A stretch of DNA of 64,000 nucleotides from Candidatus Bathyarchaeota archaeon (GTDB lineage Archaea; Thermoproteota; Bathyarchaeia; 40CM-2-53-6): the NCBI GenBank assembly GCA_963726255.1, contig CAVSBL010000002.1, positions 2,080,001 through 2,144,000 of the forward strand, read 5' to 3'. Each line of letters begins with the position of its first letter. Position 1 is the first letter of the stretch. Both the position numbers and the translations under genes were made by a program. The notes under the pieces were generated by a model. That model searched no databases. It was not told the origin of the DNA and was given only the letters and a program-made list of their open reading frames with translations. Below are positions 1 to 18,137 of the stretch, piece after piece.

Positions 1-123
1 GTTTGGATATACGACAACATGAACGGCAATTGGATACGTGCAAGTCCTGACGGCTCAACCCGGCTCAAGCCCGGACAAGCCATGTGGGTCCTCGTAACCG
101 CGCCCGCAACCCTGAGGCCATAA
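1..123 (+). repeat. TLRP C-terminal repeat copy 1 (3' end of a GWNL-domain gene, cut by the window edge)
   Basis: Frame 1 reads VWIYDNMNGNWIRASPDGSTRLKPGQAMWVLVTAPATLRP-TAA, homologous to the C-termini of ORFs 3279..5285 and 7988..8806. Confidence 0.9.
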
Positions 124-171
124 TTCTTGAATTCTACTCGTCGAAAAAATCGATGAATTAAGAAGTCTTCA

Positions 172-1071
172 TCAGAGTCTCATTGCTGCTGAGATAACGT
201 AGCCCATGGCCAAGAGGGCGATTGTGAGATAGGCGGTTGCAATGTTTGCTGCGAGCGCTGGAACTAGCTTTCGAGTGTTTGAAAACTCACGTAATGTTAC
301 CCTGATGGCTTTTGCGGCGAAGGGGAGCGCGGTCAGAGCGATCAGAGTGGGCGGAGGGGTAAGGCCGAAGATTACCGATACGGGGATGCAAGCAACAGCC
401 AACGCCTCGAGGAGGGCGTAGAGTTTCGCAGAACGCCCCCTGCCCAGCAATATTGGAATGTTCTTTCGTCCGCCTGCGGCGTCAGCTTCGAGGTCAGGCA
501 TCTCATTCAGGAAGAGCACGTTAGCAATCATTATGCCTGGCGCGAGACCCACGGCCACGGCGCCCGCACTTATGTTACCGGTTTGGACGAAGTAAGCCCC
601 GATTATTGCTAGTGGCCCAAGGTTTAGGCCTGCCAGGAACTCTCCCAAGTAGATTCTGGCGAATGTGTTTGAGTAGAAGTAGACCGAGATGGCCGCGATC
701 GCCACCAGACCCAGGAGCGCTATTCCCCGCGTCAATACAAAGTAGGCACCGATTGGAATCGCAAGAAGGAGCGAACCCAAGCCGAACGATAAGGCGCTCT
801 TCGGTTTGATTAAGCCCGCGACTAGGAATCTGCTTCCGCCACTGAAGGGCGTTTTCAAAGTGGCCGCATCCACCCCGGTCTTATAGTCGTAGTAATCGTT
901 GAGCACGTTCACTGCGTTCTGCGCTAATGTCACACCAATTATTGCGAGAACGTAGTAGGCTAGGTTGAAGAGACCCTCCCGTGCTGCAACGGCCGTGCCC
1001 AAGCTGACGAGTAGAAAACTCATCAACAAGGACGGTTCCACAGCTTCGCGGAACCAAACCTTAAGCCCCAA
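172..1071 (-). CDS. menA: UbiA-family prenyltransferase, MenA-like (1,4-dihydroxy-2-naphthoate polyprenyltransferase)
   Basis: NVLNDYYDYKTGVD and NEMPDLEADAAGGRKN aspartate-rich motifs; multiple TM segments. Confidence 0.8.
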   Translation of the reverse strand: MGLKVWFREAVEPSLLMSFLLVSLGTAVAAREGLFNLAYYVLAIIGVTLAQNAVNVLNDYYDYKTGVDAATLKTPFSGGSRFLVAGLIKPKSALSFGLGSLLLAIPIGAYFVLTRGIALLGLVAIAAISVYFYSNTFARIYLGEFLAGLNLGPLAIIGAYFVQTGNISAGAVAVGLAPGIMIANVLFLNEMPDLEADAAGGRKNIPILLGRGRSAKLYALLEALAVACIPVSVIFGLTPPPTLIALTALPFAAKAIRVTLREFSNTRKLVPALAANIATAYLTIALLAMGYVISAAMRL

Positions 1072-1197
1072 AGCAACTTTGCGCCGAGCTTACCGTTTCA
1101 GTGATTATAATGGTGACGCTTGAACCCAGAGGTTACGGCTTTGAACCTAATGTATTCTGAAGAATCTTCGATTGATTGCTTGTGACAATGGCTGCGG

Positions 1198-1791
1198 TCA
1201 AGACATGGTCATGGTTACGGTTGAGTTTGAAGGTGCCAGAACAGTAGCTATGGCGGAGACCGTCGTTCCAACGTTGTACGCGCCCGACATGAACCTGACG
1301 CCGATCGTTACGCCGTTGGAACCGCCGTTGGCAATGAGCGCGTCATTACCCATGGGGTCCTTGACTAGGAGGAAGTTCAGGTATGGTGGAATTGCGGATA
1401 TGACATCACCCACCATCAACCCGGCTGGAACCACTACAACCTTCGATGAGGTTGAGAAACCTGTGATTTGCATTACCCCCGTTCCATCGATGTTTATCGT
1501 GTCGAGGAGTATGTCGAAGTCAGCGGCCCGGTTCAGGACCAGGACAATTCTCGTAATGAAGAATGGGCCGGTTCCTTGACTTGTGATCGTAATCTTGGAG
1601 TTTCCTAGGAATTGTGTGCTAGCGTAGACTCGAACAATGCCATATTGGGATAGGGGCATTGGGACGTCTGTGGAAGGAGGAGGAGCGAGCACGTAGCTGA
1701 GGCTAATTGAGGTTAAGCCAATCAGTATGATGGCCGCTGCTAGGATTGCAATCCTAGTCCTCCGCGCTAGGATCTTCCGCATAACACTCAC
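1198..1791 (-). CDS. Secreted or membrane-anchored hypothetical protein
   Basis: Basic N-terminus plus hydrophobic signal/anchor, then a beta-rich domain. Confidence 0.7.
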   Translation of the reverse strand: MSVMRKILARRTRIAILAAAIILIGLTSISLSYVLAPPPSTDVPMPLSQYGIVRVYASTQFLGNSKITITSQGTGPFFITRIVLVLNRAADFDILLDTINIDGTGVMQITGFSTSSKVVVVPAGLMVGDVISAIPPYLNFLLVKDPMGNDALIANGGSNGVTIGVRFMSGAYNVGTTVSAIATVLAPSNSTVTMTMS

Positions 1792-1989
1792 TAAGGTGGG
1801 GAACCCGCCGACCGCACAAAATTGCGCTCTAAGGATACTTAATGCTTTGCCATCACACCGCTCCTAGGCTAACGTGTAGACAACATCAAACAAAGGGCTA
1901 ATCCAGCCGAACAATCTTTCCAGGCTTCAAAGCGTCGAACGATCCCTACTTCACGAAAGCTTTAGTAATATCCGCTTAAGTATCGCGAT

Positions 1990-3132
1990 TTGATTTTCAT
2001 GAGAGCCCAAAATGCCAGTCTTCTGTTCACGGGCCTCATCTTGGCGCTTCTGGTGGCGAATTTCCCGATTCTGGTGCAGGCTCAGAGCCCTCCGCCGTTA
2101 CCTATGCTGTACACCGGGAACGTAACCCTCAACGGTTCCCCGGCGCCGGACGGCCTGAATGTCACAGCGCTAGATAACGGCGTGGTCGTGGGTTCAGCAT
2201 TAACGAGTGGCGGCACATATTCACTCTTAGCCTGTTCGCCCGAGAATTGCAATCAGGGCGATACGTTGAGTTTCAAGCTGAACGGCCAATTGACCGCGGC
2301 CCAAACCGTTGCAGTAGACACTAGCCAACGCGGAATCCCGCAAAACCAAGACCTATCCTTCACGGGAACATTATCGTCAGTCACAACAACCACGCCTCCA
2401 CCCACATCAACGACGACCGCCACGCAACAAACCACTTCAACGAGTTCGGCTGTGAGTAGCACTAGTTCAACCGAAAGTAGCGCTAGCATGACTGAGAGTA
2501 GTTCGGCTACGGTTCCAGCTACGACGAGCAATTCTAGCGCTCTTCCCACTGGCCCGAAATGCCTCATAGCCACCGCTACTTATGGGTCTGAGCTTGCACC
2601 GGAAGTTCAACTGCTCCGCAACTTCCGTGATTATTCAATCATGAAAACTCAGGCTGGGTCAAACTTCATGGTTGCCTTCAATGCCTGGTACTACTCCTTC
2701 AGCCCCTACGTTGCGAACTATATCGCTAGCCATTGGGTTGAACGAACCGTCATGAAGGGCGTCCTCTACCCGCTGATCGGAATGCTCTTCCTGACGCATG
2801 TCGTCTTCTCGGCTGCTGCCACCTCCCCCGAATTCGCAGCTCTCCTTTCTGGGTTGCTTGCGAGTTCACTAATTGGCGCATTCTACTTGGGCTTGCCAAT
2901 CGGCTTCCTCAGGGCAAAGCTCCGCCGGCTGCGCAACTGGAAAGGAGAGAGGCTATTCGAGCAATCGCTTGGGTTGATACTCCTCAGCGGAATGATTCTA
3001 CTAATCGCCGGAGAAGCCACAGCCCTTCCGGCATTGCTCATGATCTCATCGGCCGCAATCGTATTGTCAACCCTCTTCCTCTCTGCATTACTCACATCAG
3101 CGATGATTGGCAAGAAACTCCAAGCCGACTGA
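1990..3132 (+). CDS. Cell-surface protein with Ser/Thr linker and CFI-box-CTERM domain
   Basis: Signal peptide, small beta domain, S/T-rich linker, CLIATATYGSELAPEVQLLRNFRD (CFI-box motif), C-terminal TM helices. Confidence 0.85.
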   Translation: MIFMRAQNASLLFTGLILALLVANFPILVQAQSPPPLPMLYTGNVTLNGSPAPDGLNVTALDNGVVVGSALTSGGTYSLLACSPENCNQGDTLSFKLNGQLTAAQTVAVDTSQRGIPQNQDLSFTGTLSSVTTTTPPPTSTTTATQQTTSTSSAVSSTSSTESSASMTESSSATVPATTSNSSALPTGPKCLIATATYGSELAPEVQLLRNFRDYSIMKTQAGSNFMVAFNAWYYSFSPYVANYIASHWVERTVMKGVLYPLIGMLFLTHVVFSAAATSPEFAALLSGLLASSLIGAFYLGLPIGFLRAKLRRLRNWKGERLFEQSLGLILLSGMILLIAGEATALPALLMISSAAIVLSTLFLSALLTSAMIGKKLQAD

Positions 3133-3278
3133 ATCTTTAGAGACCGCAATTGGCGCCGATTCCTGCGTTTGGTCATGCCTTATGGCATAATTATTCGAAC
3201 GAGTTGAATCTACGTACCTCGTGGCTCCTAGGGCAATATTCTTGTCGTTATGAAAGGCGTTAAATAACGATTCATATT

Positions 3279-5285
3279 ATGTACTGTTGGTCGATTTTGC
3301 GTTATCATGTTCGCTCAACGATTGCGGGTTTGTTATCTTTCCTATTGATAGTTAGTTTCGCAGCGTTCATACCTCCATCCGTCTTCGCTGTGAATAACAC
3401 GATTACCGTCAAGGTGCTTCCTACTGGCGCCGGCACCGCCAAAGCTCTCCCTGCTCTCTCTGTTCTCCCGGGAACGACCGTGACCTTAACTGCGGTCCCT
3501 GCAGCAGGCTACTACTTCCAAGCATGGGTCTTAGAAAATATGAACAATGGAACGTACGGGTACTATTCGAACGTCAATCCTACGATGCTCAAGACAGATT
3601 CAGCGGGAGGAGTAGCCTATGCTGTGATTGCGTATTTCCAGCAGGTGAATCAATGGGTCAGATACCAAGGCAACCCGATTCTAACACGAGCAGCTGACCC
3701 AACCTCTTGGTTTAGTGACTATGTCTATGAGCCGAAGGTCTTCGCTCGGCCCGATGGAAGTTTTGGAATGGCTTTCAGGGGATGTGGCCCACTCACATTG
3801 ACGGCTTCATTTCCTGTGTACAACTGCAGGATCGGACTAGCAACGAGCGCTAATGCATTTACCTGGACGCCGAACCTCGCCCCAATCCTCTCCCCAGGCG
3901 GAGGAAGCTCAGTCAATTCTATCATAGGTAGCTCGAACAGCCCCTACCCATGGGATAATTACAGCATGAATCTGGGCAGCGTATTCTGGGATCCTTCGTT
4001 CTCGGGAGGAAAGTTTCTGCTATACTACAGCGCCCAGAATGTTTCATCATCGAGTACTCGTCCCTTTCTCCTGTTTAGGGGAATTGGGCTGGCATCGTCA
4101 TCTGACGGAGTAACCTTCGCCCGTGAGAATGGTGGGAAACCGCTTTTGTACACACAATTCACGTGCACAAGCGGATCCTGCCCGAGTTTTGCATACCCGT
4201 CCGTGCTCAAGCACGGCTCCACGTATATGATGTGGCAAAACGGCAAGCCAACCGGCGGACAAGGAGGAGCCATATTCCTCGAAACATCAACAGACGCTAT
4301 CCATTGGAGCCTGCAAAACGGAGGAGACCCCGTGTTAACCCAAGAAGACTGGAACGATTACGACAACTATGGTCATCTGATCATCAATCCACAATCCCTG
4401 ATTGACGCCTACAAATGGGACGGCGATTTCGTATATGCTCCAAGCGTGCTCTACGACGCCCTCGCGAACAATTTCAAAATGTTCTACTCTGGAACTGATT
4501 ACAACGGGACTTCATGTTGCAGGACGGGCTTCGCAACTTCACCCGAAGGAATAAACTGGAATCCATACCCCGGCAATCCGATCATCGCACCTAATGCTGC
4601 CCCTGCATGGGATGATGGTGACAGCACAGACCTTGTCGGAGCGTTCTACCTCAACAGTACGCTCATGGTCTACTATTCAGGGGACACGTTCAACTCTATC
4701 AGTTGCATTGAAAACGGGGATACCTGCAGTCACTTCCAAGCGTACAGCATAGGTTTGCTTTACGCTTCCGAGATTCCGGTAGTTGCCGGATGGAACCTTA
4801 TCTCGTTACCCGTAGTTCCCAACAATAACAACCTGAAAACGATCCTTGCCCCACAAATCGCCACGGGTCACCTCACAATAGTCTGGAGCTATTTGACGGC
4901 TACGAAGAGCTGGATATCCTTCACGCCTCCCTCCACGGGCACGTTGACTACTCTGGTGGACGGCAAGGCATATTGGGTGAGGATGACGACCGCAGACACC
5001 ATCATCGTGGGTGGAACAGTGATACCCCCAGCCGTGGGGCCTCCAAGCTATGTGCTTCCTCAAGGCTGGAACCTGTTAGGCTTCAAACCACAACCCAACA
5101 TCGAGAACGAAACCGTATCCTTCTACCTATCCAGCATTTCATCCGGCTATGACCCCAACAGCGTCTACATCTACAACAACCTTTCCGGAGCATGGACAAA
5201 GGCGAATGGTAACACGTTGCTTCTGCCAGGCCAAGGATTGTGGATTTACGTAACCTCCGCTACACCTGTCACCTTGAGACCGTAA
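3279..5285 (+). CDS. Secreted five-bladed beta-propeller glycosidase-like protein (GH32/43/130-like) with two C-terminal GWNL repeats (TLRP copy 2)
   Basis: Signal peptide; TVTLTAVPAAGYYFQAW repeat; repeated blade motifs (IGLATS, IGLASSSDG, STDAIHW, SPEGINW, GNPI); GWNLISLP and GWNLLGFKPQP repeats ending VTLRP. Confidence 0.8.
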   Translation: MYCWSILRYHVRSTIAGLLSFLLIVSFAAFIPPSVFAVNNTITVKVLPTGAGTAKALPALSVLPGTTVTLTAVPAAGYYFQAWVLENMNNGTYGYYSNVNPTMLKTDSAGGVAYAVIAYFQQVNQWVRYQGNPILTRAADPTSWFSDYVYEPKVFARPDGSFGMAFRGCGPLTLTASFPVYNCRIGLATSANAFTWTPNLAPILSPGGGSSVNSIIGSSNSPYPWDNYSMNLGSVFWDPSFSGGKFLLYYSAQNVSSSSTRPFLLFRGIGLASSSDGVTFARENGGKPLLYTQFTCTSGSCPSFAYPSVLKHGSTYMMWQNGKPTGGQGGAIFLETSTDAIHWSLQNGGDPVLTQEDWNDYDNYGHLIINPQSLIDAYKWDGDFVYAPSVLYDALANNFKMFYSGTDYNGTSCCRTGFATSPEGINWNPYPGNPIIAPNAAPAWDDGDSTDLVGAFYLNSTLMVYYSGDTFNSISCIENGDTCSHFQAYSIGLLYASEIPVVAGWNLISLPVVPNNNNLKTILAPQIATGHLTIVWSYLTATKSWISFTPPSTGTLTTLVDGKAYWVRMTTADTIIVGGTVIPPAVGPPSYVLPQGWNLLGFKPQPNIENETVSFYLSSISSGYDPNSVYIYNNLSGAWTKANGNTLLLPGQGLWIYVTSATPVTLRP

Positions 5286-5288
5286 ACT

Positions 5289-5312
5289 TGGAACACGGAA
5301 ACCCGTGTTCCA
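5289..5312 (+). terminator. Perfect 10-bp stem hairpin right after the 668-aa gene
   Basis: TGGAACACGG-AAAC-CCGTGTTCCA starting 4 nt after the stop codon. Confidence 0.5.
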
Positions 5313-5373
5313 CTTAATTTCCACTCAAGGCATTTCTGTCATGCTCCATCCAAGCGCGTAACGCCGGGTAGTG

Positions 5374-5460
5374 TCGTCGGCCGCAATCGTATTGTCCACT
5401 CTCTTCCTATCCGCATTGCTGACGTCAGCGAAGATTGGCAAGAGACTTCACCCAGCCTAA
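5374..5460 (+). pseudogene. Orphan 3' end of a CFI-box-CTERM gene (paralogue of 3046..3132)
   Basis: Reads SSAAIVLSTLFLSALLTSAKIGKRLHPA-stop versus SSAAIVLSTLFLSALLTSAMIGKKLQAD-stop; an in-frame stop at 5359-5361 lies just upstream. Confidence 0.9.
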
Positions 5461-5531
5461 CTGCACGGAAAGACCGAAACAGCAGCCACGACAAACCCAC
5501 TCCGCAATTTCACGATCACACTTTCCGTGCT

Positions 5532-5729
5532 CAACGTGGAATCCCTCAAAACCAGGACCTAGCCTTCACGGGAACATTATCATCAGTCACAACAACCACG
5601 CCACTGACCACAACTAGCGAAATGGTAACGACAACTACACCCATACCTGAATTCCCGGCGTTGGCATTGGCGCTGCTTGCCGCGTTGGGCGTGGCGTTCG
5701 CAACATTCTACAAGAAGACTCGGCGTTAA
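5532..5729 (+). pseudogene. Orphan alternative C-terminus of the 1990..3132 protein ending in a PEF-CTERM anchor
   Basis: 5532..5602 matches 2326..2396 at 66/71 nt (QRGIPQNQDLAFTGTLSSVTTTTP), then a Thr linker, PIPEFP, a TM helix and KKTRR-stop. Confidence 0.9.
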
Positions 5730-5776
5730 CCCTTCAGGTTCTCCATTTCTTACAGGTCCTACATTTTGTCTGACAA

Positions 5777-6367
5777 CTAAGATTCAGTGTACGACAAAAT
5801 TGTGGTGTGGCACACCCAGAAACCTGGTGTGTCAAGTTTCCGGTTTCTTCGTCTTGATGTAGCCTGATTGCGTTTTTTCGGAAGCACTAACGCAATTATT
5901 AGCGTGGCCGTGAGGGTGATTCCGATTAGACCTATGATGGCTTGATCGAATTCTGGGACGGGGCGCACGCAGACTAGAAAGTTGGTTATGCTACCCGCTA
6001 CCGTGATTTGTTGCAACCCGGGCGGGTGAGAGGATGGGCTGGTGAAAGTTTGCGTATTGTTTCCTGAGATTTCCACAACTGTGATGCTGTAGTAGGAATA
6101 GGTGGTGCTGGAAGTTTGCAGAAGTTGCACGTAGATTACTCCCCTGTAATGGCCTGTGCCGTTGTAGGGGGCAAGATACCCCGTAACGGAGGTCGCAGTT
6201 CCGTTCGCAAACTTGCCTGCGACCCCGGCGAGGCTGTAGTAATCGGAAGACGGCGCAGTAAGCTGATAATTGGAGTAGCAAGTTTGTGTTGCGGCTTCAG
6301 GCAATACCAAGGCTATAGCTAGGACGGCGAACAACCCGCCCCATAACAGCACTTTCACCGGAAGCAT
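5777..6367 (-). CDS. Secreted protein with PEF-CTERM-like anchor
   Basis: Likely start MLPVKVLLWGG at 6367 (signal peptide); VPEFDQ followed by a TM helix and PKKRN. Confidence 0.75.
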   Translation of the reverse strand: MLPVKVLLWGGLFAVLAIALVLPEAATQTCYSNYQLTAPSSDYYSLAGVAGKFANGTATSVTGYLAPYNGTGHYRGVIYVQLLQTSSTTYSYYSITVVEISGNNTQTFTSPSSHPPGLQQITVAGSITNFLVCVRPVPEFDQAIIGLIGITLTATLIIALVLPKKRNQATSRRRNRKLDTPGFWVCHTTILSYTES

Positions 6368-6587
6368 GCCCCCTAACTCGTATACGACTCGGGCCTGGAA
6401 TTTGAACCCACTTCGACCCCCTTCGACAATTGTCGTATGAAAAATCTGATTATCTGCTAATCGACGCGTTTCAATACTTAGGCTCCCATTATGCGCACTT
6501 AATGGCATCTTCGTGTAAGACGACTTCGCCAAGTAAATGAAAATATGGTTTAAGTATGCAATTGGTATCATTTGTAAACGATACGCA

Positions 6588-6908
6588 ATGACGTTGCGGC
6601 CGCTGGCGACAAGGGTGCCCAAGGAAGTCGAGCATGAGATACAAGACGTTATGGATTTCCTCAAAATCGAGAAGGCCCAGGCTGTCAGGATGATTCTGGA
6701 GATTGGAATTTCAGAGTGGAAGAAGAGAACGGCGATTGAGCTTCTAAGGGATGGAAGAGTAACCTTCGCAAAAGCCGCGAAACTAGCCAACCTGGACCTA
6801 TGGGACTTTGCGGATGTGGTAAGGGATAGGAAGGTAGAGTGGGTTAGCACCCCTGCTAGTGAGCTGGAAGTTGAGGCCAGCAAGGCCTCAAGGGCCGCAA
6901 ACGAATGA
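6588..6908 (+). CDS. UPF0175-family antitoxin
   Basis: AIELLRDGRVTFAKAAKLANLDLWDF signature; overlaps the downstream PIN gene (ATGA). Confidence 0.85.
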   Translation: MTLRPLATRVPKEVEHEIQDVMDFLKIEKAQAVRMILEIGISEWKKRTAIELLRDGRVTFAKAAKLANLDLWDFADVVRDRKVEWVSTPASELEVEASKASRAANE

Positions 6909-7417
6909 AATCCCTCATATTCGATTCTACGCCTCTAATCTACCTGACAAGAGTTGGACTCGTCAGACTGTTCGAACTTATTCCAGCCCAGAAGTTCGTT
7001 GCCCGTTCGGTTTTCAGGGAAGTGGTCGAGCGCGGGAAAGTGAAAGGATTAGCAGATGCATTAGCGCTGGAGGCTCTTTTCGACGCGAAAACCATAACGA
7101 TCAGTGAGCCATCGAAGAAAGCAGTTTTGCGCATGTTTACCAGCATAAGCGGCTTGGAGGAAGCCGATGCTGAAACCCTGGCCATCGCGAAGGAACAGGG
7201 TTATCGTGCCGTTCTAGACGACCTTCTAGCGAGAAAGGTAGCGAGAACCTACGGGATTGATTTCGTGGGAACCCCCTACTTGCTAATGATTGCAACCAAT
7301 ACTCGGATACTCACGAAAAAAGAGGCAACGAAGGCAGTCGACGAGATGATTGAAGCCGGCTGGAGATGCGGCCCCGAGCTATACCGCGAGATCCTGCGAT
7401 TGATCGAGCATAGCTGA
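6905..7417 (+). CDS. PIN-domain toxin (DUF3368-like)
   Basis: IFDSTPLI, VFREV, ADAETLAIA, LDDLLARKVA, GTPYLL motifs. Confidence 0.85.
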   Translation: MKSLIFDSTPLIYLTRVGLVRLFELIPAQKFVARSVFREVVERGKVKGLADALALEALFDAKTITISEPSKKAVLRMFTSISGLEEADAETLAIAKEQGYRAVLDDLLARKVARTYGIDFVGTPYLLMIATNTRILTKKEATKAVDEMIEAGWRCGPELYREILRLIEHS

Positions 7418-7444
7418 ATCCCGGCAAAAGAGAAAGTGACTTGC

Positions 7445-7960
7445 CTAGGCTTTGCGGCTTGACGTTCTTCTGCGCTTGAGGAAGAATAGGCTGAGCGCAA
7501 CGGCGGCGATTCCTACTACGCCAATTACAATGAGTTCGAACCCTGGGGTTGGCTGCGCTGGGTCGTGGACGTGGATTGTTGTTGAAGCCCCCAGCGTTTT
7601 CGTCATGGCATCGTTTCCCAGCAATCTCATGAAAGCAGAGGCTATGATTGTGTAGCCACCTGCAGTCGTTGGTGTCCATTTTTCGCTAACTATCAAAGCG
7701 TCGGCCGTGACGTGTGTGGATGAGTAGGTTGTTTGGTTTGAAGCGTTCAGTACTTGGATTTGGATTACGTAATTGTGGGCGATCATGGGTTGCATGCAGC
7801 CCGGAAGCAGGGGGAGAAAGGTTACGGTGATGTTCACACGCTCGCCGACAGCGTAATCGTCCCGATCGGTTTGGACGATTAGGGAACTGCACGCCCGGAC
7901 ATTAATTGAAGCAGCGCCGGCAAGGACTGGAAAAACCGACGCTAGGACTAAAGCCATCAT
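7445..7960 (-). CDS. Secreted Ig-like protein with PGF-CTERM-like anchor (possibly 5'-clipped)
   Basis: TDRDDYAVGERVNITV Ig-like motif; TPGFE, TM helix, KRRR tail. Confidence 0.75.
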   Translation of the reverse strand: MMALVLASVFPVLAGAASINVRACSSLIVQTDRDDYAVGERVNITVTFLPLLPGCMQPMIAHNYVIQIQVLNASNQTTYSSTHVTADALIVSEKWTPTTAGGYTIIASAFMRLLGNDAMTKTLGASTTIHVHDPAQPTPGFELIVIGVVGIAAVALSLFFLKRRRTSSRKA

Positions 7961-7987
7961 TAGGCTAAGGAATACGGAACGGGCGAT

Positions 7988-8806
7988 TTGCCTTTGCGAT
8001 CATCTTGCTCCTTCAGTCCGTCACCTGCTGTTCCAGACTATATTAGCACACTCACGATAAGCACGGAGCCTTCGACGCCAGCAGGGTCTTACGACGTTAT
8101 TGTGAACGGCACAGTCGGGATCGTGACTAACTCGACTAGCTTCAACCTGGTTGTGAATCAGCATCAACAATCCTGCACGTTGACCTCTCTCCCCTCAATG
8201 TACAATTGCCCGTTACCGTTCGTGCAGGGTTGGAACCTGTTTTCACTGCCAGTCACGCCTGTGGCTAACAGCACATTCCCGAACACTGTCGACGGCATCT
8301 TCGGTTCTAACCCTCAGTTTGGTTTCATGAGCAATGTGAGCAGCATCTTCGCGTACACTTCGGGAACATGGCAAACCTGTATGGTGACTAAACAAGGTTC
8401 AGAGGCGAATGCGAAGTACACCTGCACAGGGGCTTTGAAGAACTTGGTTGACGGCAGGGGGTACTGGGTTTACGCTAAGGTAGCGTTCACTTTGAACAAT
8501 CCAAACAACCTCGCTCCGACTTGGGGTGGGCTGGTCGGTTCGGTCATTCCCTCAACCTCTACACCACCAACATACTCGCTGACTGCGGGCTGGAATCTTG
8601 TAGGGTACAAGCCGCAACCTGACCCAGCTGTGTCGGAAACGGTTTCCACATACTTGACCAGCCTGCTCGGCAGCAGCTACGACCCTAACAATGTCTGGGT
8701 CTACGATAGTGCAACAGCGCGGTGGGCTCGTGGCACGGAGACGACGCTGGAGCCCGGCCAAGCGTTCTGGGTCTTCATGCTAACCCCGGCCCAGCTCCGC
8801 CCATAA
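7988..8806 (+). pseudogene. 5'-truncated surface protein: Ig-like fragment plus two GWNL repeats (TLRP copy 3)
   Basis: No signal peptide; begins mid-domain (STLTISTEPSTPAGSYDVIVNGT); head-to-head 27 bp from the divergent gene; GWNLFSLP and GWNLVGYKPQP repeats, ends AQLRP. Confidence 0.75.
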
Positions 8807-8830
8807 CCCGTCCCAATCAGTTGCCAGATA

Positions 8831-9061
8831 TACTCGCTGACTGCAGGATGGAACCTGATCGGCTACAAACCCCAACCCCGCGTTCAAAATGAAACTGTAA
8901 GTCAATACCTCATCAGCATCAGCGGAAGCTACGACCCGAACAACGTTTTCGTTTACAACAACCTAACCGGTTCATGGACTCGCGGCGGACCCTCAACTCA
9001 ACTTGTCTCTGGAGAAGTCATGTGGATTCTAATGGCCTCATCCGCTACGCTGAGGCCGTAA
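8831..9061 (+). repeat. TLRP copy 4: start-less copy of the terminal GWNL repeat
   Basis: YSLTAGWNLIGYKPQPRVQNETVSQYLISISGSYDPNNVFVYNNLTGSWTRGGPSTQLVSGEVMWILMASSATLRP-TAA; same frame as 7988..8806. Confidence 0.9.
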
Positions 9062-9171
9062 CACCCAGCCACAATGACCGGAGGGCATTCCCTCGTCAGC
9101 TTGGCAACGCCCTCAAGGTGGATGTAATCAACTGATGATTAGTGCTGTGAGCTGTCCATTCGTGAGGGCGT

Positions 9172-9597
9172 CTAATTGCGTGTCTTCTTGATTAGGTGGG
9201 AGGGTTCGGTTCTTGGAACGTCGAGTTTGTCGAAATGCTTGTCGTAGCTTACAATGGCCTCTACTCCTAATCTCTTTGCAACGTAATATTGCAGCGCGTC
9301 GTCAAAATCCAGAGATTCTCTCTCAGTTAGCATCGCTGCAGACATCTCATCCGCTACGCCGGTCTCAAAGACGGTGAGCCCAAGCGAATTATCTAGATTC
9401 CTGAGGAAGGTGAGGATTGGTTCTCCTGAGCCAAGCACAGCTTCCACTGCGTGTACGGTGAAATGGGTGATAACCGCTTCAATCCTGCCCTTTGAGACAG
9501 CACTAAGTAAAGCTTCACAATCATCAGCCCTACTTTGCCCCAGCAATAATTCAAGGAAGACGTTCGTATCCAGTAGAATCAATCTTGGTTCGACCAA
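9172..9597 (-). CDS. vapC: VapC PIN-domain toxin
   Basis: LLDTNVFLE, LDFDDALQYY, IVSYDKHFD. Confidence 0.9.
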   Translation of the reverse strand: MVEPRLILLDTNVFLELLLGQSRADDCEALLSAVSKGRIEAVITHFTVHAVEAVLGSGEPILTFLRNLDNSLGLTVFETGVADEMSAAMLTERESLDFDDALQYYVAKRLGVEAIVSYDKHFDKLDVPRTEPSHLIKKTRN

Positions 9598-9815
9598 AGC
9601 CTATGCTGCAATTGAACAGAGGAACCCTTCTTCCCCGTCCTCAAAGTGCCCTTCAAAGAAGCCCAATCCACTGACCCTGACATGGAGAATTTCGTGATCA
9701 CATCCTCCACGGCTTTCTTGATCGTCCCCTTCTTGTACCCGTACTTTTCCATGGCCTTCTTCCTGAACTTCCTAGCAAGAGCATCATCAACCTCGACTTT
9801 TATTGTTTCGGTCAT
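9579..9815 (-). CDS. vapB: Ribbon-helix-helix-type antitoxin
   Basis: 78 aa, TIKVEVDDALARKFR beta-alpha pattern, overlaps vapC. Confidence 0.75.
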   Translation of the reverse strand: MTETIKVEVDDALARKFRKKAMEKYGYKKGTIKKAVEDVITKFSMSGSVDWASLKGTLRTGKKGSSVQLQHRLWSNQD

Positions 9816-10064
9816 ATGTCCATATCCCCCAAATGTCCATTACTCGCCCAACCTAAAAGAGTTAAGGTATCTACGCGTGCAGTCACGTGTAAATCGAGGG
9901 AAATTACGCCGCCACCCTCGTTACAATAGCTGCGCCTGAGGCCGCGGCGATCTGCCGCCAACGCTTCTACGTAGAAAGTTGCGCGTCCACGAATCCCACC
10001 GGTCCGAGAATACCGACTGAGAAACCAGGAATTAATCCGTTTAAAGAACGAAATATTGCTGGCA

Positions 10065-10454
10065 CTAAAACCATGTTGTCTTCACGTTAGCTATTGATTT
10101 GATGTGGTCGTCGTCCGTGAAGCAAACCAGCTTCTTGATCTTCGCAGTTGCGGCAATTATTGCGTCTGCGATTGGAAAATCTCTGCCTTGGGAAACTTTA
10201 ACCTCAGCAGACTCGGCGGCTATGTCAGAATTAATGTCTATGACTTCAAAGTCTCTCTCAATAGCAGATTTTCTTATCTTTGCCACATCACGGCCTTCAA
10301 CTTCGAGGCTTATTCTGTATACTTCGTGAATGGTAATGGCTGATACGTATCTACGTTTTCGAGCCTGTAGTTCCGACTTGACCTTCAGTCGCAGACCACG
10401 TTCTGCAGTGTAGGTTGCGATGAAGAATCTTGTGTCATAAAGTGTGTCAGGCAT
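10065..10454 (-). CDS. vapC: VapC PIN-domain toxin
   Basis: YDTRFF, TIHEV, IADAIIAATA, FTDDDH. Confidence 0.9.
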   Translation of the reverse strand: MPDTLYDTRFFIATYTAERGLRLKVKSELQARKRRYVSAITIHEVYRISLEVEGRDVAKIRKSAIERDFEVIDINSDIAAESAEVKVSQGRDFPIADAIIAATAKIKKLVCFTDDDHIKSIANVKTTWF

Positions 10455-10668
10455 CTTCTCGCCTGATCTGGTCTAGTCTTCGCTTCATTTCGTCGAAGCC
10501 TTTTTTGCTGCTTCCAATGAGGTCGATCGTCGACCGAGCTTTTCTGAACATTACTCCCTCACCGGTGTCAATTACTTGGAGCTTCGCTCCTTGGGACATG
10601 GCATACTTCTCCCGCAACTCTTTGGGGATAGTTGTCTGGCCCTTCCGGGTTACAGTGACGGTAGTCAA
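10447..10668 (-). CDS. vapB: AbrB/MazE-family antitoxin
   Basis: VTVTRKGQTTIPKELREKY signature. Confidence 0.9.
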   Translation of the reverse strand: MTTVTVTRKGQTTIPKELREKYAMSQGAKLQVIDTGEGVMFRKARSTIDLIGSSKKGFDEMKRRLDQIRREDA

Positions 10669-10719
10669 TCCTGATTCAGATCAAGTGTGGTTTGGGTAGT
10701 ATTTATCAGTGACGGTAGT
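10653..10719. promoter_or_regulatory. 13-bp direct repeat across the antitoxin start and promoter (candidate autorepression operator)
   Basis: CAGTGACGGTAGT at 10653-10665 and 10707-10719. Confidence 0.45.
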
Positions 10720-10934
10720 ACTGTTAACTTCGGTACTACTTCATGCTCCTGAAGCAGGTCCGTTTCAAACCTGGGCGTTAACATGCAGTCAATGGTGCTT
10801 GATGTGTGGACAGCCGTACGGGACTCATTTAACCCAATAGATCTTGGGCTCAGACCCCATTGATCCCAAGATTGTCTGGGAATGCTGCCGGAAAATGCAC
10901 CCAGGACGAGACGATATGTGACCGGCCCCGCCCC

Positions 10935-11006
10935 ACATCAACTCAACTAGTCCATGGAGAAGTCGTGTGGATCCTAAGGGCCTCATCCGCTGCACTGAGG
11001 CCGTGA
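10935..11006 (+). repeat. TLRP copy 5 (short remnant)
   Basis: TSTQLVHGEVVWILRASSAALRP-TGA; closest to copy 4, with similar downstream flank. Confidence 0.9.
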
Positions 11007-11165
11007 GAATTCAGTCACAAGAACCGCGCCTGAGGCCTAAACCAGCTTAGGGTTGCCTTCGCTTGGCACCGTTTGGCACCACCCCAAGATGGGTGGATCA
11101 ACCGTCCCCGCTGCGAATGGTTGCAGCATTATTTGGCCGTGAGTTCCTTCGGTCCGAACGTTTGA

Positions 11166-11555
11166 TTAGATCATGTAAACTTCTGGTAATCCTCGAAAAT
11201 GCTGGTCCCCGGTAACAACCTTCCCGCCTCTATCACGTGCAGTTGAAAGTACAATTGAATCAGCCAACCCCCAACCCGGAACACGTTTCTTCATCACCAC
11301 ATCCAGCTTAGCGGCTTCGACAGCCAATTCCTCACCGAGAACCACAAGCGCACTTCTCGATTTGATGAAAGCCCTTCGGAGCTCCGCCTTCTCGGCGGCC
11401 TCGCTTCTCAGAATCTTAGCGTATATCTCTGCCAAGCATATTGATGGTGTGAGCTTCTCATTGACTTCAGAGTCAACAATTGCTTTGACTTTCCTTCCGC
11501 CGTCGGTTCCCATGAAGTATTCTAGCCAGGCGTGGGAATCTATAATGTACTTCAA
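11166..11555 (-). CDS. vapC: VapC PIN-domain toxin
   Basis: IIDSHAWLEYF, CLAEI, LADSIVLSTA, VTGDQHF. Confidence 0.9.
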   Translation of the reverse strand: MKYIIDSHAWLEYFMGTDGGRKVKAIVDSEVNEKLTPSICLAEIYAKILRSEAAEKAELRRAFIKSRSALVVLGEELAVEAAKLDVVMKKRVPGWGLADSIVLSTARDRGGKVVTGDQHFRGLPEVYMI

Positions 11556-11737
11556 GTTCGGTCCCTATGGTCGCGGAGGTCCCTCAAGGACGTCTTGTCC
11601 ATTGTGCCGAACATGCTCTCTCCCTTCAGCAAGGCTTCGGCTAGGATTGCGTTAATGGCGTCTGAGATTCCTCTCGGGCCGTACTTCTTTTTGAGAATCT
11701 CATACAGGTCTTCTCTAAGCAACACTGTCGTCTTCAT
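11552..11737 (-). CDS. vapB: Small antitoxin
   Basis: 61 aa, KTTVLLREDLYEILKK RHH-like, 4-nt overlap with vapC. Confidence 0.8.
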   Translation of the reverse strand: MKTTVLLREDLYEILKKKYGPRGISDAINAILAEALLKGESMFGTMDKTSLRDLRDHRDRT

Positions 11738-11750
11738 GGCAAATACGTAA

Positions 11751-11778
11751 CCGTAAACATAAACATAAACCTTTACGG
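11751..11778. promoter_or_regulatory. Inverted repeat upstream of the antitoxin (candidate operator)
   Basis: CCGTAAA-(CATAAACATAAACC)-TTTACGG. Confidence 0.45.
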
Positions 11779-11791
11779 CTTCGCATCTACC

Positions 11792-11968
11792 ATGAGAGGT
11801 AACCGCGAAACCTACCTAATGAGCACCACAGGAAGTTATGAAACAAACAGCATTTGGGTTTACGATAGTTTAACCTCGGTTTGCGTTTGGGCTGACTCGA
11901 GCTACATGCTTCAGCCTGGTGTGGGAATGTGGATCCTTATGACCGCGCCCGCGACGCTCAGACCGTAA
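11792..11968 (+). repeat. TLRP copy 6 (remnant; open 58-aa frame from ATG 11792)
   Basis: MRGNRETYLMSTTGSYETNSIWVYDSLTSVCVWADSSYMLQPGVGMWILMTAPATLRP-TAA. Confidence 0.9.
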
Positions 11969-11984
11969 CCCATGCTGAACTTAA

Positions 11985-12338
11985 TCAAATGTCCCGGATG
12001 ATGTTGGGAATATCGCCGAGAATTATTTGGGTGATTTCGACGAAGCCACGGAACTTCCCCGCCTTAAACCAAGGCGTTTGGCACACCAACTTTCGCACTC
12101 CCCCCTTCTGCGTAGTGTAAACGTTTGCCTGCTTTTTCTCTATAAGCTCCTTGAGTTTCGCCCGTGCCGATTCCGGGTGGCAATCAAACACATTAGTGCC
12201 AATCAGCTGCTGACCCCCATCGTCCTTGAAGTCTTCGGCCGCCTTCGCGTTCATCTCCAGAATCATTCCCGCGGAATCGCACACAGTAATTGCAGCAGGA
12301 AATTCTTCCACCCACGAATGATTAGTGACTTTCGCCAA
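11985..12338 (-). CDS. Stand-alone PAS-domain protein
   Basis: ITVCDSAGMILEMNAKA...LIGTNVFDCHP PAS signature. Confidence 0.8.
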   Translation of the reverse strand: MAKVTNHSWVEEFPAAITVCDSAGMILEMNAKAAEDFKDDGGQQLIGTNVFDCHPESARAKLKELIEKKQANVYTTQKGGVRKLVCQTPWFKAGKFRGFVEITQIILGDIPNIIRDI

Positions 12339-12554
12339 ATTCGCCTCACAACTTCCTAGTTGAATTAAAACCGAGCCCTCCTTTAGAATGCTTTACTCCT
12401 TATCCTTAGAGGAAATCACTCAAGATTAGCGGCCAAGTCTTGCAGACTTCACCGGTGGCCTCTGTAACACTGAAATCGTATGACTGACGGGCACGTTACA
12501 GGTTGTACGTCAGTCTTAAGTACAACACTTTAGCTAAGGTTGTACTGGCAACCT

Positions 12555-12791
12555 ATGTCAGACGATGTCGTTCTGGTTACAAGGAAGGGTCAGATTACGA
12601 TCCCAGTCTCAAAGAGAAACAAGTACAGAATAAAGGAAGGCATGAAGGTTCTTGTAAAGGACAGTTCTGAGGGCATTCTCATTAAGCCAATTACACCGAT
12701 AGAAAGTTTAGCGGGAGTGGATGCAGGTAAAGTAAGCATTGCGCGGATGAAGCGTAAACTGGACGACATGAGGCGACAAGATAGGTACTGA
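12555..12791 (+). CDS. vapB: AbrB/MazE-family antitoxin
   Basis: VLVTRKGQITIP; ATG at 12555 chosen as the start. Confidence 0.9.
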   Translation: MSDDVVLVTRKGQITIPVSKRNKYRIKEGMKVLVKDSSEGILIKPITPIESLAGVDAGKVSIARMKRKLDDMRRQDRY

Positions 12792-12793
12792 AC

Positions 12794-13192
12794 ATGCCCG
12801 TCACGGTCGACACACGTTTCTTTTTGACTCATTACCTCGCGGACACTGATGAGCTTAAGTCGAGAACATCAGGAAAAATGATTGAACTTCAAAGAGAAGG
12901 CGCCGTGGTTCCTACGATCGTTCTCCATGAAGTGTATAAGTTCACTTACGAAAATGTCGGAAAGGAAGTCGCCTATCTTCGCGTCAACTCGATTATGAGC
13001 TCGGATATGAGGGTGGTTGATTTGACACCACAAATTGCTGTAGCATCAGCTAACCTGAGGTGTCGGCACAGGGGATTGCCGACAGCCGATTCGATTATTG
13101 CAGCAACGTGCATAGATACGAAATCGAAGCGCGTTCTCTCCGATGACCCACGCTTCAAGATGATCAAAGAAATCGAGGCCGAATGGCTCTAA
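12794..13192 (+). CDS. vapC: VapC PIN-domain toxin
   Basis: VDTRFF, VLHEV, TADSIIAATC, LSDDPRF. Confidence 0.9.
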   Translation: MPVTVDTRFFLTHYLADTDELKSRTSGKMIELQREGAVVPTIVLHEVYKFTYENVGKEVAYLRVNSIMSSDMRVVDLTPQIAVASANLRCRHRGLPTADSIIAATCIDTKSKRVLSDDPRFKMIKEIEAEWL

Positions 13193-13207
13193 CGCTCTCC
13201 ACGTGCC

Positions 13208-13288
13208 CGTACTAATGAGTACACATCGCTTCGGCCTGGGCAGGCAATGTGGATTCTTATGACCGCGCCTGCCACACTCCGACCTTAA
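13208..13288 (+). repeat. TLRP copy 7 (last remnant; right end of the island)
   Basis: RTNEYTSLRPGQAMWILMTAPATLRP-TAA. Confidence 0.9.
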
Positions 13289-13354: not shown

Positions 13355-13633
13355 TCATTCTAGTCTGCGAATGATGTGGTATCCGAATTGTGTTTTCACG
13401 ATGGGTGAGGTTTGTCCTTTCTGGAGCGCGAACGCGGTCTGCTCAAACTCTTTCACCATCTTCCCACGCGTGAACCAGCCGAGGTCGCCCCCACGTTTGC
13501 CCGAGCCCGGGTCGCGGGAGACCGCTTTCGCAATATTAGAGAACTTCTCACCCTTACTCAGCCGATCCAAGACCGCCTGCGCCTCCTTCTCAGTCTTCAC
13601 GAGAATATGGGTGCAGTGAACCTGATTGGGCAA
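13355..13633 (-). CDS. Parvulin-type peptidyl-prolyl isomerase
   Basis: HILVK, GGDLGWFTRGKMVKEFE, TQFGYHII. Confidence 0.95.
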   Translation of the reverse strand: MPNQVHCTHILVKTEKEAQAVLDRLSKGEKFSNIAKAVSRDPGSGKRGGDLGWFTRGKMVKEFEQTAFALQKGQTSPIVKTQFGYHIIRRLE

Positions 13634-13784
13634 AAGTAATCACTGGTACGAAACTCCGCCGAGTCCTCAATTAAGCATGTCGTCGACCTCGCCGATTACA
13701 AAGTGAGGAATCAGGGAGCATCAGGAGAGTTTGCTGAGTGGCGCGCACGGCATGTGAATCGAGGGCGTTTGCTAGTTAGTTAGG

Positions 13785-14252
13785 TTATTTGTTTCTGCGT
13801 ACGTAGTCTCTTTCCAGTGCTGACGCATACTTGTCCCAGATTTCGTGAGTATGCTTCAAATCTTGCGTTTTGGTGGGGGCGTTGCGTATCTTGTAGTGTT
13901 CTGTAAAGCGCATGTCAAGTCTGGTTCTTCGGGGGCCGAGTCTCGTTAACCTGTAATCACCCGTCTCGTCATCTTCATCGCCTATGAAGTCGAGGTGCCA
14001 CCACTTGCGGGGATACAGGGTCACTATGTTCACCCCAATCTTGGGCTTGCCTCCGCTCCTGTAAGCTGAAACGTAAATCACATGAGGTCCCCTCTTCAAC
14101 AGCATTTTCCGTTTCGCCTTCGAGCCAGTTATTTTCGGGTCGCTTTCCCGATAGTCTGTGCACCAATCGTAAACGAAGGGAAGTGGGGCGTGAATTATTT
14201 TTGAAACGCGGTAAGAGTAAGTCTTCGTGTAGCTATGCGCCAAGCCTAACAT
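13785..14252 (-). CDS. Hypothetical protein, possibly START/SRPBCC fold
   Basis: IHAPLPFVYDWCTD pattern resembles the SRPBCC N-terminus. Confidence 0.55.
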   Translation of the reverse strand: MLGLAHSYTKTYSYRVSKIIHAPLPFVYDWCTDYRESDPKITGSKAKRKMLLKRGPHVIYVSAYRSGGKPKIGVNIVTLYPRKWWHLDFIGDEDDETGDYRLTRLGPRRTRLDMRFTEHYKIRNAPTKTQDLKHTHEIWDKYASALERDYVRRNK

Positions 14253-14404
14253 TTCCTCGTAGTTACGTACGTCCCAGCATATTTAGCGTTACGTTTGAAA
14301 ATATGATTCCATGGTGTGTGCGCATCATCAGACCCATAGTAGATTGTCGCGGGCCTTATTCTTCGATATCCGTTTCGTGATGATGACGGTGAAAAAAGTT
14401 CAGC

Positions 14405-14695: not shown

Positions 14696-14847
14696 CGGAC
14701 TTCCGCAACCATGTTTCCTCTGAGCTTAATATAAGTGAATTTCTGCTGCCTACAATCCCATGAGGCCGGGTTTACTTTATCATGCGAACTTCTTGCGTCA
14801 AATCTCGGAAATGCTCATCGTGCGCTTTCCAAATTTTCCGCGTGGAA

Positions 14848-15648: not shown

Positions 15649-15853
15649 CGATTGCCACTTTACCTACCGTTGCTGGCTTAGTAATCCGACAGTTCTGCTT
15701 AAGCCTCGCCCTAGCGATGTCATGCTGGAGAAAATGATGCCTAGCATATGTTATACACCCGCATTTCCCCTCCTGCCTTAAGGGCGAGTGACATGTTGTC
15801 CCCGCAAAACTAAGCCCATTAAACCTAATCGAGGCGTTTCACGCTAAGGACAC

Positions 15854-18133: not shown

Positions 18134-18137
18134 AAAG

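Follow-up and report, generated by a model that had tools for sequence, protein, structure and literature searches.

Repeated coding ends in a bathyarchaeal chromosome as probable remnants of a decaying, recombining cluster of secreted-enzyme genes

Introduction

In Acidianus hospitalis W1, a member of the Sulfolobales, variable ('hyperplastic') chromosome regions gather non-essential genes, gene remnants and vapBC toxin-antitoxin pairs, and vapBC pairs are proposed to help keep local DNA in variable archaeal regions (PMC3119797). Here we describe a zone of ~15 kb at the start of a 64,000-nucleotide (nt) stretch of a Candidatus Bathyarchaeota archaeon chromosome (assembly GCA_963726255.1, contig CAVSBL010000002.1, positions 2,080,001 to 2,144,000; the whole stretch is referred to below as the window). 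One coding end, belonging to a protein domain that begins with the residues GWNL, occurs seven times in this zone. On our reading, to which we give a probability of about 0.68, secreted-enzyme genes clustered in a variable zone of the chromosome are decaying and recombining, and mobile VapBC-type cassettes have colonised the zone without any dedicated capture machinery. This is less exotic than an earlier proposal made from the window alone (the preliminary description), which saw an age-ordered, integron-like array built from the displaced ends of one resident gene. Most of the stubs turn out to be remnants of different enzyme genes that eroded in place.

The Sulfolobales regions and this locus are alike in being archaeal zones of non-essential gene exchange where vapBC pairs concentrate, 4 of the 11 PIN-domain matches of the genome falling within 4 kb here. 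The bathyarchaeal zone differs in its extent (~15 kb), in that no transposase or insertion sequence was noticed in it, and in being marked by tail stubs of a single gene family. It differs also in that toxin-antitoxin cassettes of this genome are bracketed by 42-83-nt repeats of neighbouring gene ends.

Integrons and superintegrons are one-directional rows of short repeats with small cargo between them, forming cassette arrays stabilised by toxin-antitoxin systems. The window likewise holds a one-directional row of short repeats with small cargo that includes toxin-antitoxin pairs, but most of this cargo is encoded on the opposite strand, and its repeats consist of leftover coding sequence. 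A repeat search of the array for attC-like boundaries returned only coding tails, fragments of a CFI-box gene and one weak inverted pair; with no intI-type recombinase and no attC-like or palindromic site after the stops, an integron was rejected. Another parallel is offered by e14 and phage 21, which insert in icd of Escherichia coli and give the gene a substitute 3' end. An insertion after tatA in a related genome (G021, described below) shares with such islands, and with those at tRNA genes, the layout of an intact gene with a replaced end, cargo and the displaced old end. Unlike them, the locus has yielded no integrase, the inserts measure 1-2 kb and the repeated ends have diverged without a common core. 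We rejected a stack of integrase islands on the grounds that the tails lack a common att core, that no tyrosine recombinase was found (other integrase families not having been sought by name) and that the 5' limits of the stubs vary.

Displacement of protein C-termini is the remaining parallel, and for Rhs proteins it was reportedly described by Jackson et al. in 2009. In contrast to Rhs and contact-dependent inhibition (CDI) systems, no variable in-frame tip follows the conserved end in the window, and the PIN toxins are separate genes, mostly on the opposite strand. An Rhs/CDI-type orphan array was therefore rejected: what is conserved is the protein's extreme end, with no toxic tip behind it. 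[quoted passage not shown] T6SS/Rhs displacement resembles the present case in that incoming DNA is anchored at a conserved stretch and older units move downstream to form orphan arrays, a form that the tatA event of G021 also has. Anchoring there relies on the conserved 5' part or core, and what gets displaced are variable toxin tips together with their immunity genes, whereas in the window it is the extreme 3' end that is conserved, and most stubs are in-place remnants of different genes.

Results

The analysed genome (G000) is represented by a 2.42-Mb assembly, 98.5% complete, whose contig C2 carries the window. Translation leftwards from the stops showed that the + strand frames ending at 123, 5285, 8806, 9061, 11006, 11968 and 13288 all (7/7) share one peptide end, ...PG(Q/E)xxW...(A/P)(T/Q/A)LRP-stop, also describable as ...W(V/I)(L/Y/F)...(A/P)(T/Q/A)LRP-stop. 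The seven same-strand ends reported in the preliminary description are thus borne out, and so are their ragged 5' ends at about the lengths given there: on remeasurement, the stubs comprise 272-280 codons (copy 3), 77 (copy 4), 24 (copy 5), 53-54 (copy 6) and 27 (copy 7), lying in frames that are free of stops for 280, 84, 57, 100 and 31 codons, respectively. A usable start codon is missing from copies 4, 5 and 7. With a profile of the module described below, six of the seven copies were matched at E values from 1.9e-79 to 3e-7 and copy 5 at E<=0.01, the DNA of copy 5 being 81-88% identical to the end of copy 4 (88% across 67 nt). Because the module profile matches them, the seven are true homologues rather than chance resemblances. 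The last 75 nt of the copies are 40-81% identical in pairwise DNA comparison, and the sequences 3' of the seven stops, when compared, showed no conservation. A tRNA scan of window positions 1-20,000 and an Rfam scan of positions 1-17,000 (E<=0.1) found nothing, which rules out an array anchored on an RNA gene.

The individual copies represent several kinds of protein. Copy 1 (1..123, +) is the last 40 codons of a complete gene (G000:C2:2077370-2080123) that starts 2.6 kb to the left of the window and encodes a 917-amino-acid (aa) secreted protein with a papain-like C1 peptidase, an InlB B-repeat, a GH43/130-like propeller (GH, glycoside hydrolase) and the double GWNL module. Copy 2, held earlier to be the sole complete gene, is therefore one of two; it (3279..5285, +) encodes a 668-aa secreted protein with a signal-like N-terminus, an InlB B-repeat, a GH43/130-like propeller and the double module. 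Copy 3 (7979..8806, +) is a 5'-truncated S53 (sedolisin-type) peptidase pseudogene of which ~276 last codons are left, with both GWNL domains kept. Copy 4 (8825..9061, +), a stub of the second GWNL domain covering profile positions 78-155, is common to G021 and stands in frame behind the stop of copy 3 in G000 and G021 alike. Copy 5 (10935..11006, +) is a 24-codon stub common to metagenomic locus L023; copy 6 (11807..11968, +) retains 53 codons of an NHL/SMP-30-type propeller gene equipped with a GWNL module; and copy 7 (13205..13288, +) is a 27-codon stub covering profile positions 129-155. The array had been expected to continue leftwards with more remnants, but the only other copy in the assembly lies 1.9 Mb off (C2:143593-144060), in a complete 568-aa gene.

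Full genes of this family end in two related beta domains of ~75 residues each, both starting with GWNL, and the repeated peptide is the last strand of the second. The enzyme bodies ahead of this module vary. In G000 they are a C1 peptidase joined to a GH43/130-like propeller, a GH43/130-like propeller alone and an HExxH metallopeptidase-like body; relatives add S53 and S8 peptidases and a glucose/sorbosone dehydrogenase. Public proteins with the module carry C11 and M4/M36 peptidase, sialidase/BNR, GH32, GH10 and GH53 bodies, PQQ and NHL propellers, and solute-binding proteins. By direct reading of the sequence, full GWNL proteins open with a signal-like hydrophobic stretch. When 1.84 billion cluster representatives were searched with the profile, 12,419 proteins matched at E<=0.001, 4,359 of them at E<=1e-10, and in most of the 150 matches listed the module reaches the C-terminus or stops a few residues short of it. 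Among close public relatives of the module, the organism-named sources are three, all Bathyarchaeia. No Pfam or NCBIfam model exceeded its curated cut-off on the module. An AlphaFold2 model (mean per-residue confidence, pLDDT, 85.6) has two small beta domains, for which a fold search of the PDB gave no match at E<=0.001 (best 9.8e-3, template-modelling (TM) score 0.25); a search of the ESM Atlas gave unnamed clusters only. These data indicate that the double GWNL module is a widespread, previously undescribed C-terminal module of secreted hydrolases, where it probably serves in surface retention or substrate binding.

We then surveyed the family in related genomes. The module was found in 7 of the 22 other genomes of the genus and in none of the 18 searched genomes of other genera in the order. 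Fifty-eight profile matches were obtained in 8 of 41 genomes: 32 full modules, 22 5'-cut stubs that keep the end, 1 weak 3'-cut match and 1 cut by a contig end, with 2 of the 58 rows duplicating matches already counted. The lone match without the end, in G013, has an E value of 2.2e-4 and two internal stops. Elsewhere, the whole module is spread across four reading frames at L018 11412-11886 (G003:C3), covering profile positions 5-31, 31-85, 85-133 and 137-155; this is a family member decaying through frameshifts rather than deletion. At L053 2125-5251 (G011:C2), a 990-aa open reading frame (ORF) is followed after 11 nt by a stub (profile positions 108-155) and, 289 nt further on, by an intact 810-aa GWNL gene, which looks like internal deletion of most of a module with the enzyme body still open.

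To learn what the stubs once were, we compared loci syntenic with the window at 85-97% DNA identity, namely contig C121 of G021 (L015) and metagenomic loci L022 and L023, both located through a PAS-domain protein, plus a more distant locus in G011. Four public runs of one study, the study that also supplied the run containing the window best, were compared as assembled contigs; among them, X2 has contigs of a co-occurring strain. The orthologous position holds a longer or intact gene for copy 3 (G021, X2), copy 6 (L022) and copy 7 (L022, L023), and the relation is reversed at copy 2, of which L023 has a stub. In G021, copy 3 is an intact 909-aa S53 peptidase gene with a Pro-kumamolisin activation domain and an S8/S53 domain, 92% identical in DNA to the window from 7979 on and unrelated to it before 7979. 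An X2 contig has 4,680 other bases between window positions 7860 and 7979, which would suffice for the missing 1.9 kb of copy 3 together with the S8-type GWNL gene that precedes copy 3 in G021; in L022, only the last 18 codons of copy 3 are present. Copy 2 is whole in the window and L022, while L023 is without 3210-5236 and has the last 16 codons left, at a joint with 2-4 nt of microhomology.

Copy 6 is in L022 a pseudogene of ~420 codons with one frameshift that aligns to residues 140-561 of a 561-aa NHL-propeller family member; it comprises ~70 codons in G021 and L023. One internal deletion in it, with a 16-nt filler, is common to G000, G021 and L023, and G000 has an extra loss of ~55 nt. 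An apparent extension of copy 6 to profile position 87 was dismissed as chance similarity of sequence shared with the upstream region of L022. Copy 7 covers profile positions 26-155 in L022 (at least 130 codons), 111-155 in L023 and 129-155 in the window, and the corresponding spot of G021 has no module-profile match and ~190-233 unrelated bases instead. The 5' limits of one and the same stub thus vary between genomes. The bodies differ (GH43/130-like, S53, NHL propeller), and the stubs are therefore not successive ends of one gene. These alignments trace most stubs to separate genes of GH, S53 and NHL-propeller type, formerly arranged in a row and since shortened from the 5' side. The preliminary description had named full-length paralogues at the copies in relatives as the observation that would speak against its array, and such paralogues were found, wholly or in part, for four copies (2, 3, 6 and 7).

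The flanks of the array vary in the same gene family. Between tatA and the neighbouring hydrolase gene, G021 and L023 carry a VapBC pair, a stub and an intact 631-640-aa dehydrogenase-GWNL gene. G000 is empty there, with 3 nt of microhomology at its tatA/hydrolase joint, which lies 3 nt past the GWNL stop of the relatives. An extra GWNL gene stands beside the hydrolase on the side away from tatA in G021, L023 and G011; in L023 it lies between the hydrolase and DinB, and in G021 and G011 its far side was not seen or not found. In L022 and L023, an additional GWNL gene of 657-665 aa separates a 197-aa gene from the CFI-box gene. The window has no stub at the places where it is without these right-flank or left-side blocks. 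The statement that core genes resume after copy 7 thus holds for the window (parvulin, tatA, hydrolase, DinB), but not for G021, L023 and G011, where GWNL genes, stubs and VapBC pairs are inserted. Some stubs of relatives lie upstream of intact GWNL genes, and stubs occur on both strands.

The tails themselves show signs of recombination. Only one tail occupies the place in G021 where copy 4, two VapBC pairs and copy 5 stand in the window. The upstream part of this tail is copy-4-like, its end is copy-5-like at 4 of 6 informative sites (counted using the L023 copy 5), and it then runs into the copy-5 flank. This single tail is, judging by these sites, a recombinant between the copy-4 and copy-5 repeats. 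It would mean either that unequal crossing-over cost G021 the cargo or that an insertion site is seen here in its empty state; the presence of VapBC pair 2 in G000, L022 and L023 favours loss. Copy-6 tails are 84-91% identical across four loci, and G000 and L023 agree at 93% in copy 5, whereas the three copy-7 tails are 65-67% identical to each other and their alignment agrees only in the last ~20 nt and the flank, and so different family members were joined to the same flank within the tail. Conserved GWNL ends thus act as recombination joints. Among contigs of the four runs, in which assembly drops rare variants, none joins copy 4 to copy 5 and none has a circle joint. A contig joint in X1 (8821>8934) was disregarded, its shorter side being only 27 bases.

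The cargo is as first reported: a UbiA-family prenyltransferase, surface proteins, five toxin-antitoxin pairs (four PIN, one UPF0175 + DUF3368) and a PAS protein. Four of the genome's 11 PIN matches lie at 9.2-13.2 kb, between copies 4 and 7. These four ORFs score above the Pfam cut-off; two have AbrB/MazE-type partners, and the other two have small unnamed partners with overlaps of 4-19 nt. The pairs comprise a UPF0175 antitoxin-like gene with a DUF3368 PIN-like gene (6537..7417, +); a PIN toxin (9172-9597) with a small antitoxin (9579-9815), both within 9172..9815 on the - strand; a PIN toxin (10065-10454) with an AbrB/MazE-type antitoxin (10447-10668), which form VapBC pair 2 (10065..10668, -); a third PIN pair, toxin (11166-11555) and small antitoxin (11552-11737), at 11166..11737 (-); and an AbrB/MazE-type antitoxin (12540-12791) with a PIN toxin (12794-13192), at 12540..13192 (+), a pair absent from L023. 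The antitoxin is upstream in 4 of the 5, and 3 of the 5 lie on the strand opposite to the repeats. By domain content and arrangement, all five are VapBC-like type II toxin-antitoxin pairs with putative toxins. The blocks of VapBC pair 2 (97%) and of the third PIN pair are 96-97% identical to L022 and their neighbouring blocks 86-91%; because this identity exceeds that of the neighbours, toxin-antitoxin cassettes evidently move between genomes. A narrow profile built from the five local PINs matched at 2 of 10 further stub loci (L050-L059), ~2.4 kb and 5.7 kb from the stub, and the link between stubs and toxin-antitoxin pairs is a feature of the window locus, not of stubs generally.

Direct repeats also bracket cassettes elsewhere in G000. 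At L060 2266-2307 and 4144-4185 (G000:C2:639266 and 641144), a MazE-PIN cassette and one copy of a dispersed repeat (see below) stand between 42-nt direct repeats, which take in the 3' end of an M10-like peptidase gene. This cassette is 95% (G015) and 92% (G011) identical at other loci, and the adjoining peptidase gene 73%. At L063 2680-2757 and 4150-4232 (G000:C2:603680 and 605150), 83-nt direct repeats, 83% identical, surround a PIN gene; these overlap the 5' end of a 141-aa ORF and no 3' end. At L061 2573-2653 and 4899-4979 (G000:C2:1775573 and 1777899), an 81-nt repeat (81%) of the 3' end of a 309-aa gene surrounds a gene for a 480-aa KaiC-like ATPase. G000 has 31 direct-repeat pairs of 40-600 nt, 0.3-20 kb apart. 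The DNA between them adds up to no more than 4.5% of the genome, yet 5 of the 11 PIN matches fall within four of the pairs, and two of those four are GWNL tails, the direct repeats of copies 4/5 (67 nt, 88%) and 6/7 (70 nt, 81%). We also noted a perfect 47-nt direct repeat, 616 nt apart (G000:C2:871065-871111 and 871681-871727), that resembles a tRNA 3' half (T-arm, acceptor stem, CCA) and may mark a small integrated element or a split or intron-bearing tRNA. A second tRNA-3'-half-like pair, C2:925607/928840, was rejected as an island, since the genes it encloses are metabolic (M19 dipeptidase, CO-dehydrogenase flavoprotein).

One insertion in a relative could be given a direction. Behind tatA of G021 (L015 4344-4634) lies an insert of 1.47 kb that holds MazE-like, DUF5678 and retropepsin-like genes. 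A second tatA end comes after it, comprising the final 20 codons with the stop (L015 6109-6168), and the stop codon is the exact point at which homology sets in. The displaced 62-nt end equals the version of G000 and L023 but for one base, and the end on the intact G021 gene differs at ~6 positions. X2 has a matching back-step of 59 bases at tatA. On this sequence comparison, a foreign end came with cargo and the old end moved downstream, a single polarity-resolved case with no recombinase in sight. The earlier claim that incoming ends with cargo displace resident ones is thus borne out once, at tatA; among the GWNL genes of the compared loci, none showed a polarity-resolved insertion of a foreign tail with cargo.

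In agreement with the preliminary description, no recombinase is visible at the locus, and a search upstream was also empty. The tyrosine recombinase model PF00589 had no match in the G000 assembly at E<=0.001, while 14 of 14 control genomes were positive; given these zero matches, the Xer-type recombinase of G000 is either very divergent or missing from the assembly. Thirty ORFs in and beside the array included no recombinase, although the searches by name did not extend to serine recombinases or to the SSV-type integrases of archaea.

The remaining features of the window are genes and fragments between and around the copies. A UbiA-family prenyltransferase gene (172..1071, -), convergent with copy 1 across a 49-nt gap, is present in L022 and L023. 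It is followed by a gene for a CFI-box-CTERM membrane/surface protein (1990..3132, +; NF041770, 74.5 bits). A second CFI-box gene survives as two fragments (5368..5612, +) in odd order, a tail stub (residues 351-378) at 5368-5451 and a middle piece (residues 112-131) at 5529-5588, the DNA similarity of which extends to 5612. Homology of the window to L022 and L023 stops at 5370, just before these fragments, which both loci lack. In its layout, the tail stub recalls the tatA insertion of G021. A 171-aa surface protein with a C-terminal anchor-like helix (7445..7960, -) is also found beside the long form of copy 3 in the co-occurring strain, and a small PAS-domain protein (11985..12338, -) is convergent with copy 6 across 17 nt. 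The 3' end of a convergent gene follows within 17-160 nt of each of copies 1, 4, 5, 6 and 7, and a minus-strand ORF lies ~490 nt beyond copy 2. The right flank (13355..16966) holds parvulin, a 155-aa protein, tatA and an alpha/beta hydrolase, all on the - strand, and DinB (+). The 15 kb to the left of the array hold metabolic genes, encoding a pyridoxal-phosphate (PLP) enzyme, two SDH-type proteases, fumarase and aldehyde dehydrogenase.

Directly after copy 5 lies an internally deleted copy (11007..11164, +) of a dispersed intergenic repeat of ~150 nt, which has 13 copies in G000 and occurs in many contexts in the four metagenome runs. The others are at C2:408518, 640864, 642933, 671020, 885658, 1061681, 1170182, 1209338, 1338209, 2245863, 2247476 and 2248431. 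The repeat has a palindromic core, GGGTGGATCCACCC, and matches nothing in Rfam. In G021, a full copy of the repeat begins at the Pro codon of the copy-4/5 tail and deletes its stop.

Discussion

We propose that the stretch is a hypervariable island of the chromosome and that the ancestral locus was a same-strand cluster of secreted hydrolases (GH43/130-like, S53, S8 and NHL-propeller), each ending in a double GWNL module. Piecemeal loss, through microhomology deletions and replacement by foreign DNA, would have taken promoter and body, as documented for copies 2, 3 and 6, with the last codons persisting as a stub against the 3' end of a convergent gene that is still needed. Because such a gene adjoins, a neutral deletion would rarely end in the short gap behind the stub. 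VapBC-type cassettes, mobile among related genomes, would then have settled between the stubs. Toxin-antitoxin addiction makes such pairs hard to lose, and these cassettes may likewise have been retained. The shared tails would meanwhile provide short homology, by which unequal recombination removes or reshuffles units of cargo and tail, as seen once at copies 4/5 of G021 and indicated by the copy-7 hybrids.

The 22:1 excess of stubs that keep the end is partly a matter of ascertainment, with remnants of gene starts going unrecognised because only the tail is conserved enough for recognition. The remainder may reflect position, the stub being wedged against a neighbouring gene. For 24 stubs at all loci, the gap to the next ORF of at least 90 aa runs from -19 to 740 nt and the neighbour is convergent in 13, figures that are compatible with wedging.

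Several observations weigh against a cluster that simply decayed and recombined. The wide spread of those gaps and the share of convergent neighbours are among them. Copies 4 and 5 are never longer in any relative compared, and may have originated as displaced tails. The most alike pairs in the array are those that flank toxin-antitoxin cargo (4/5 at 81% and 6/7 at 71% over 75 nt), and the 62-nt tatA duplication of G021 falls in the size range of the copy-4/5 and copy-6/7 repeats. In the G021 hybrid tail, copy-5-like sites occur from the first bases of the stub on; as the switch comes at the very start of homology, an empty site is slightly favoured over a random crossover. Finally, the four loci are not rootable and their indel characters conflict, with VapBC pair 2 grouping G000, L022 and L023 and the copy-6 deletion grouping G000, G021 and L023.

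Homology-anchored capture is a reading that we consider unlikely as the origin of the array, though it may be a minor contributor. In it, a break or strand invasion at a conserved tail would be repaired from foreign DNA bearing a related tail and cargo, with the far end joined illegitimately; the gene would gain a new tail, the old one would stay behind as a stub, and repetition would build the array. GWNL loci would become landing pads because many genes have the tail. The mechanism does exist in this lineage, as tatA of G021 and the X2 back-step attest, and gene ends bracket inserts as repeats elsewhere in G000 (the M10-like peptidase, 42 nt; the 309-aa gene, 81 nt). Four repeat pairs hold 5 of 11 PIN matches, against the 4.5% of the genome at most that lies within all 31, and the cassettes are mobile (MazE-PIN at 95% and 92%, against 73% for the neighbouring gene). 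Copies 4/5 and 6/7 have the same geometry, which fits homology-facilitated illegitimate recombination, with polarity unset at GWNL tails. Against this, copies 2, 3, 6 and 7 still are, or once were, long genes that encode different types of enzyme where they stand today, and most stubs are therefore not displaced ends of one head gene. In relatives, moreover, stubs lie upstream of intact GWNL genes and on both strands; the tatA/hydrolase block, present in G021 and L023 and absent from G000 with 3 nt of microhomology, is ordinary insertion or deletion; and no polarity-resolved example occurs at a GWNL gene.

A more general form of this idea, which we hold tentatively and with more doubt than belief, is that cassettes spread in this lineage without a recombinase. 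An incoming end would pair with a conserved gene end (tatA, the M10-like peptidase, a GWNL tail), foreign tail and cargo would be copied in, and the old tail would be left as a 40-80-nt stub. GWNL clusters would be preferred landing pads, and at least copies 5 and 7 would be footprints of such events.

Stacked integrative elements, in which an integrase would target the 3' end of GWNL genes, bring a replacement end and later be lost, are very improbable. The order of intact gene, cargo and 3' stub does resemble tandem islands at tRNA genes, and G000 has the perfect 47-nt tRNA-3'-half-like duplicate with its 616-nt spacing. But no tyrosine recombinase domain was found in the assembly and no recombinase among the 30 scanned ORFs (serine recombinases and SSV-type integrases of archaea not having been sought by name), the tails have no identical core (40-81%) with nothing conserved past the stop, and the 5' end of the same stub differs between genomes. 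We give equally little credence to stubs kept for a function (as silent gene-conversion donors, terminators for convergent neighbours or read-through extensions), for although hybrid tails show sequence passing between copies and copy 4 is in frame after copy 3 in G000 and G021, stub lengths vary between genomes, copies 4, 5 and 7 have no start codon, disabling changes are present (an Arg in a hydrophobic strand of copy 5, an insertion at a conserved Trp position of copy 6, a frameshift in L023 copy 6, no stop in G021 copy 4/5), and there is little to diversify because the tail is the conserved, not the variable, part of the family. Read-through from copy 3 into copy 4 was dropped as well, copy 3 having lost its 5' half and copy 4 of G021 having no stop at the usual place.

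A decaying, recombining enzyme cluster thus accounts best for the locus, and it was close relatives that distinguished a capture array from a gene graveyard: coding ends that look like attachment sites are mostly the last codons of separate genes. The presence of 22 stubs beside 32 full modules in 8 genomes points to fast turnover of the secreted-enzyme repertoire, and the GWNL module bears on how sediment Bathyarchaeia may keep protein- and polymer-degrading enzymes at the cell. The cassettes provide a further lead, in that they are often bracketed in this lineage by 42-83-nt repeats of neighbouring gene ends, with one polarity-resolved case of a foreign end arriving with cargo. If true, tail-anchored cassette capture would give archaea a counterpart of gene capture that is anchored by homology and free of integrases.

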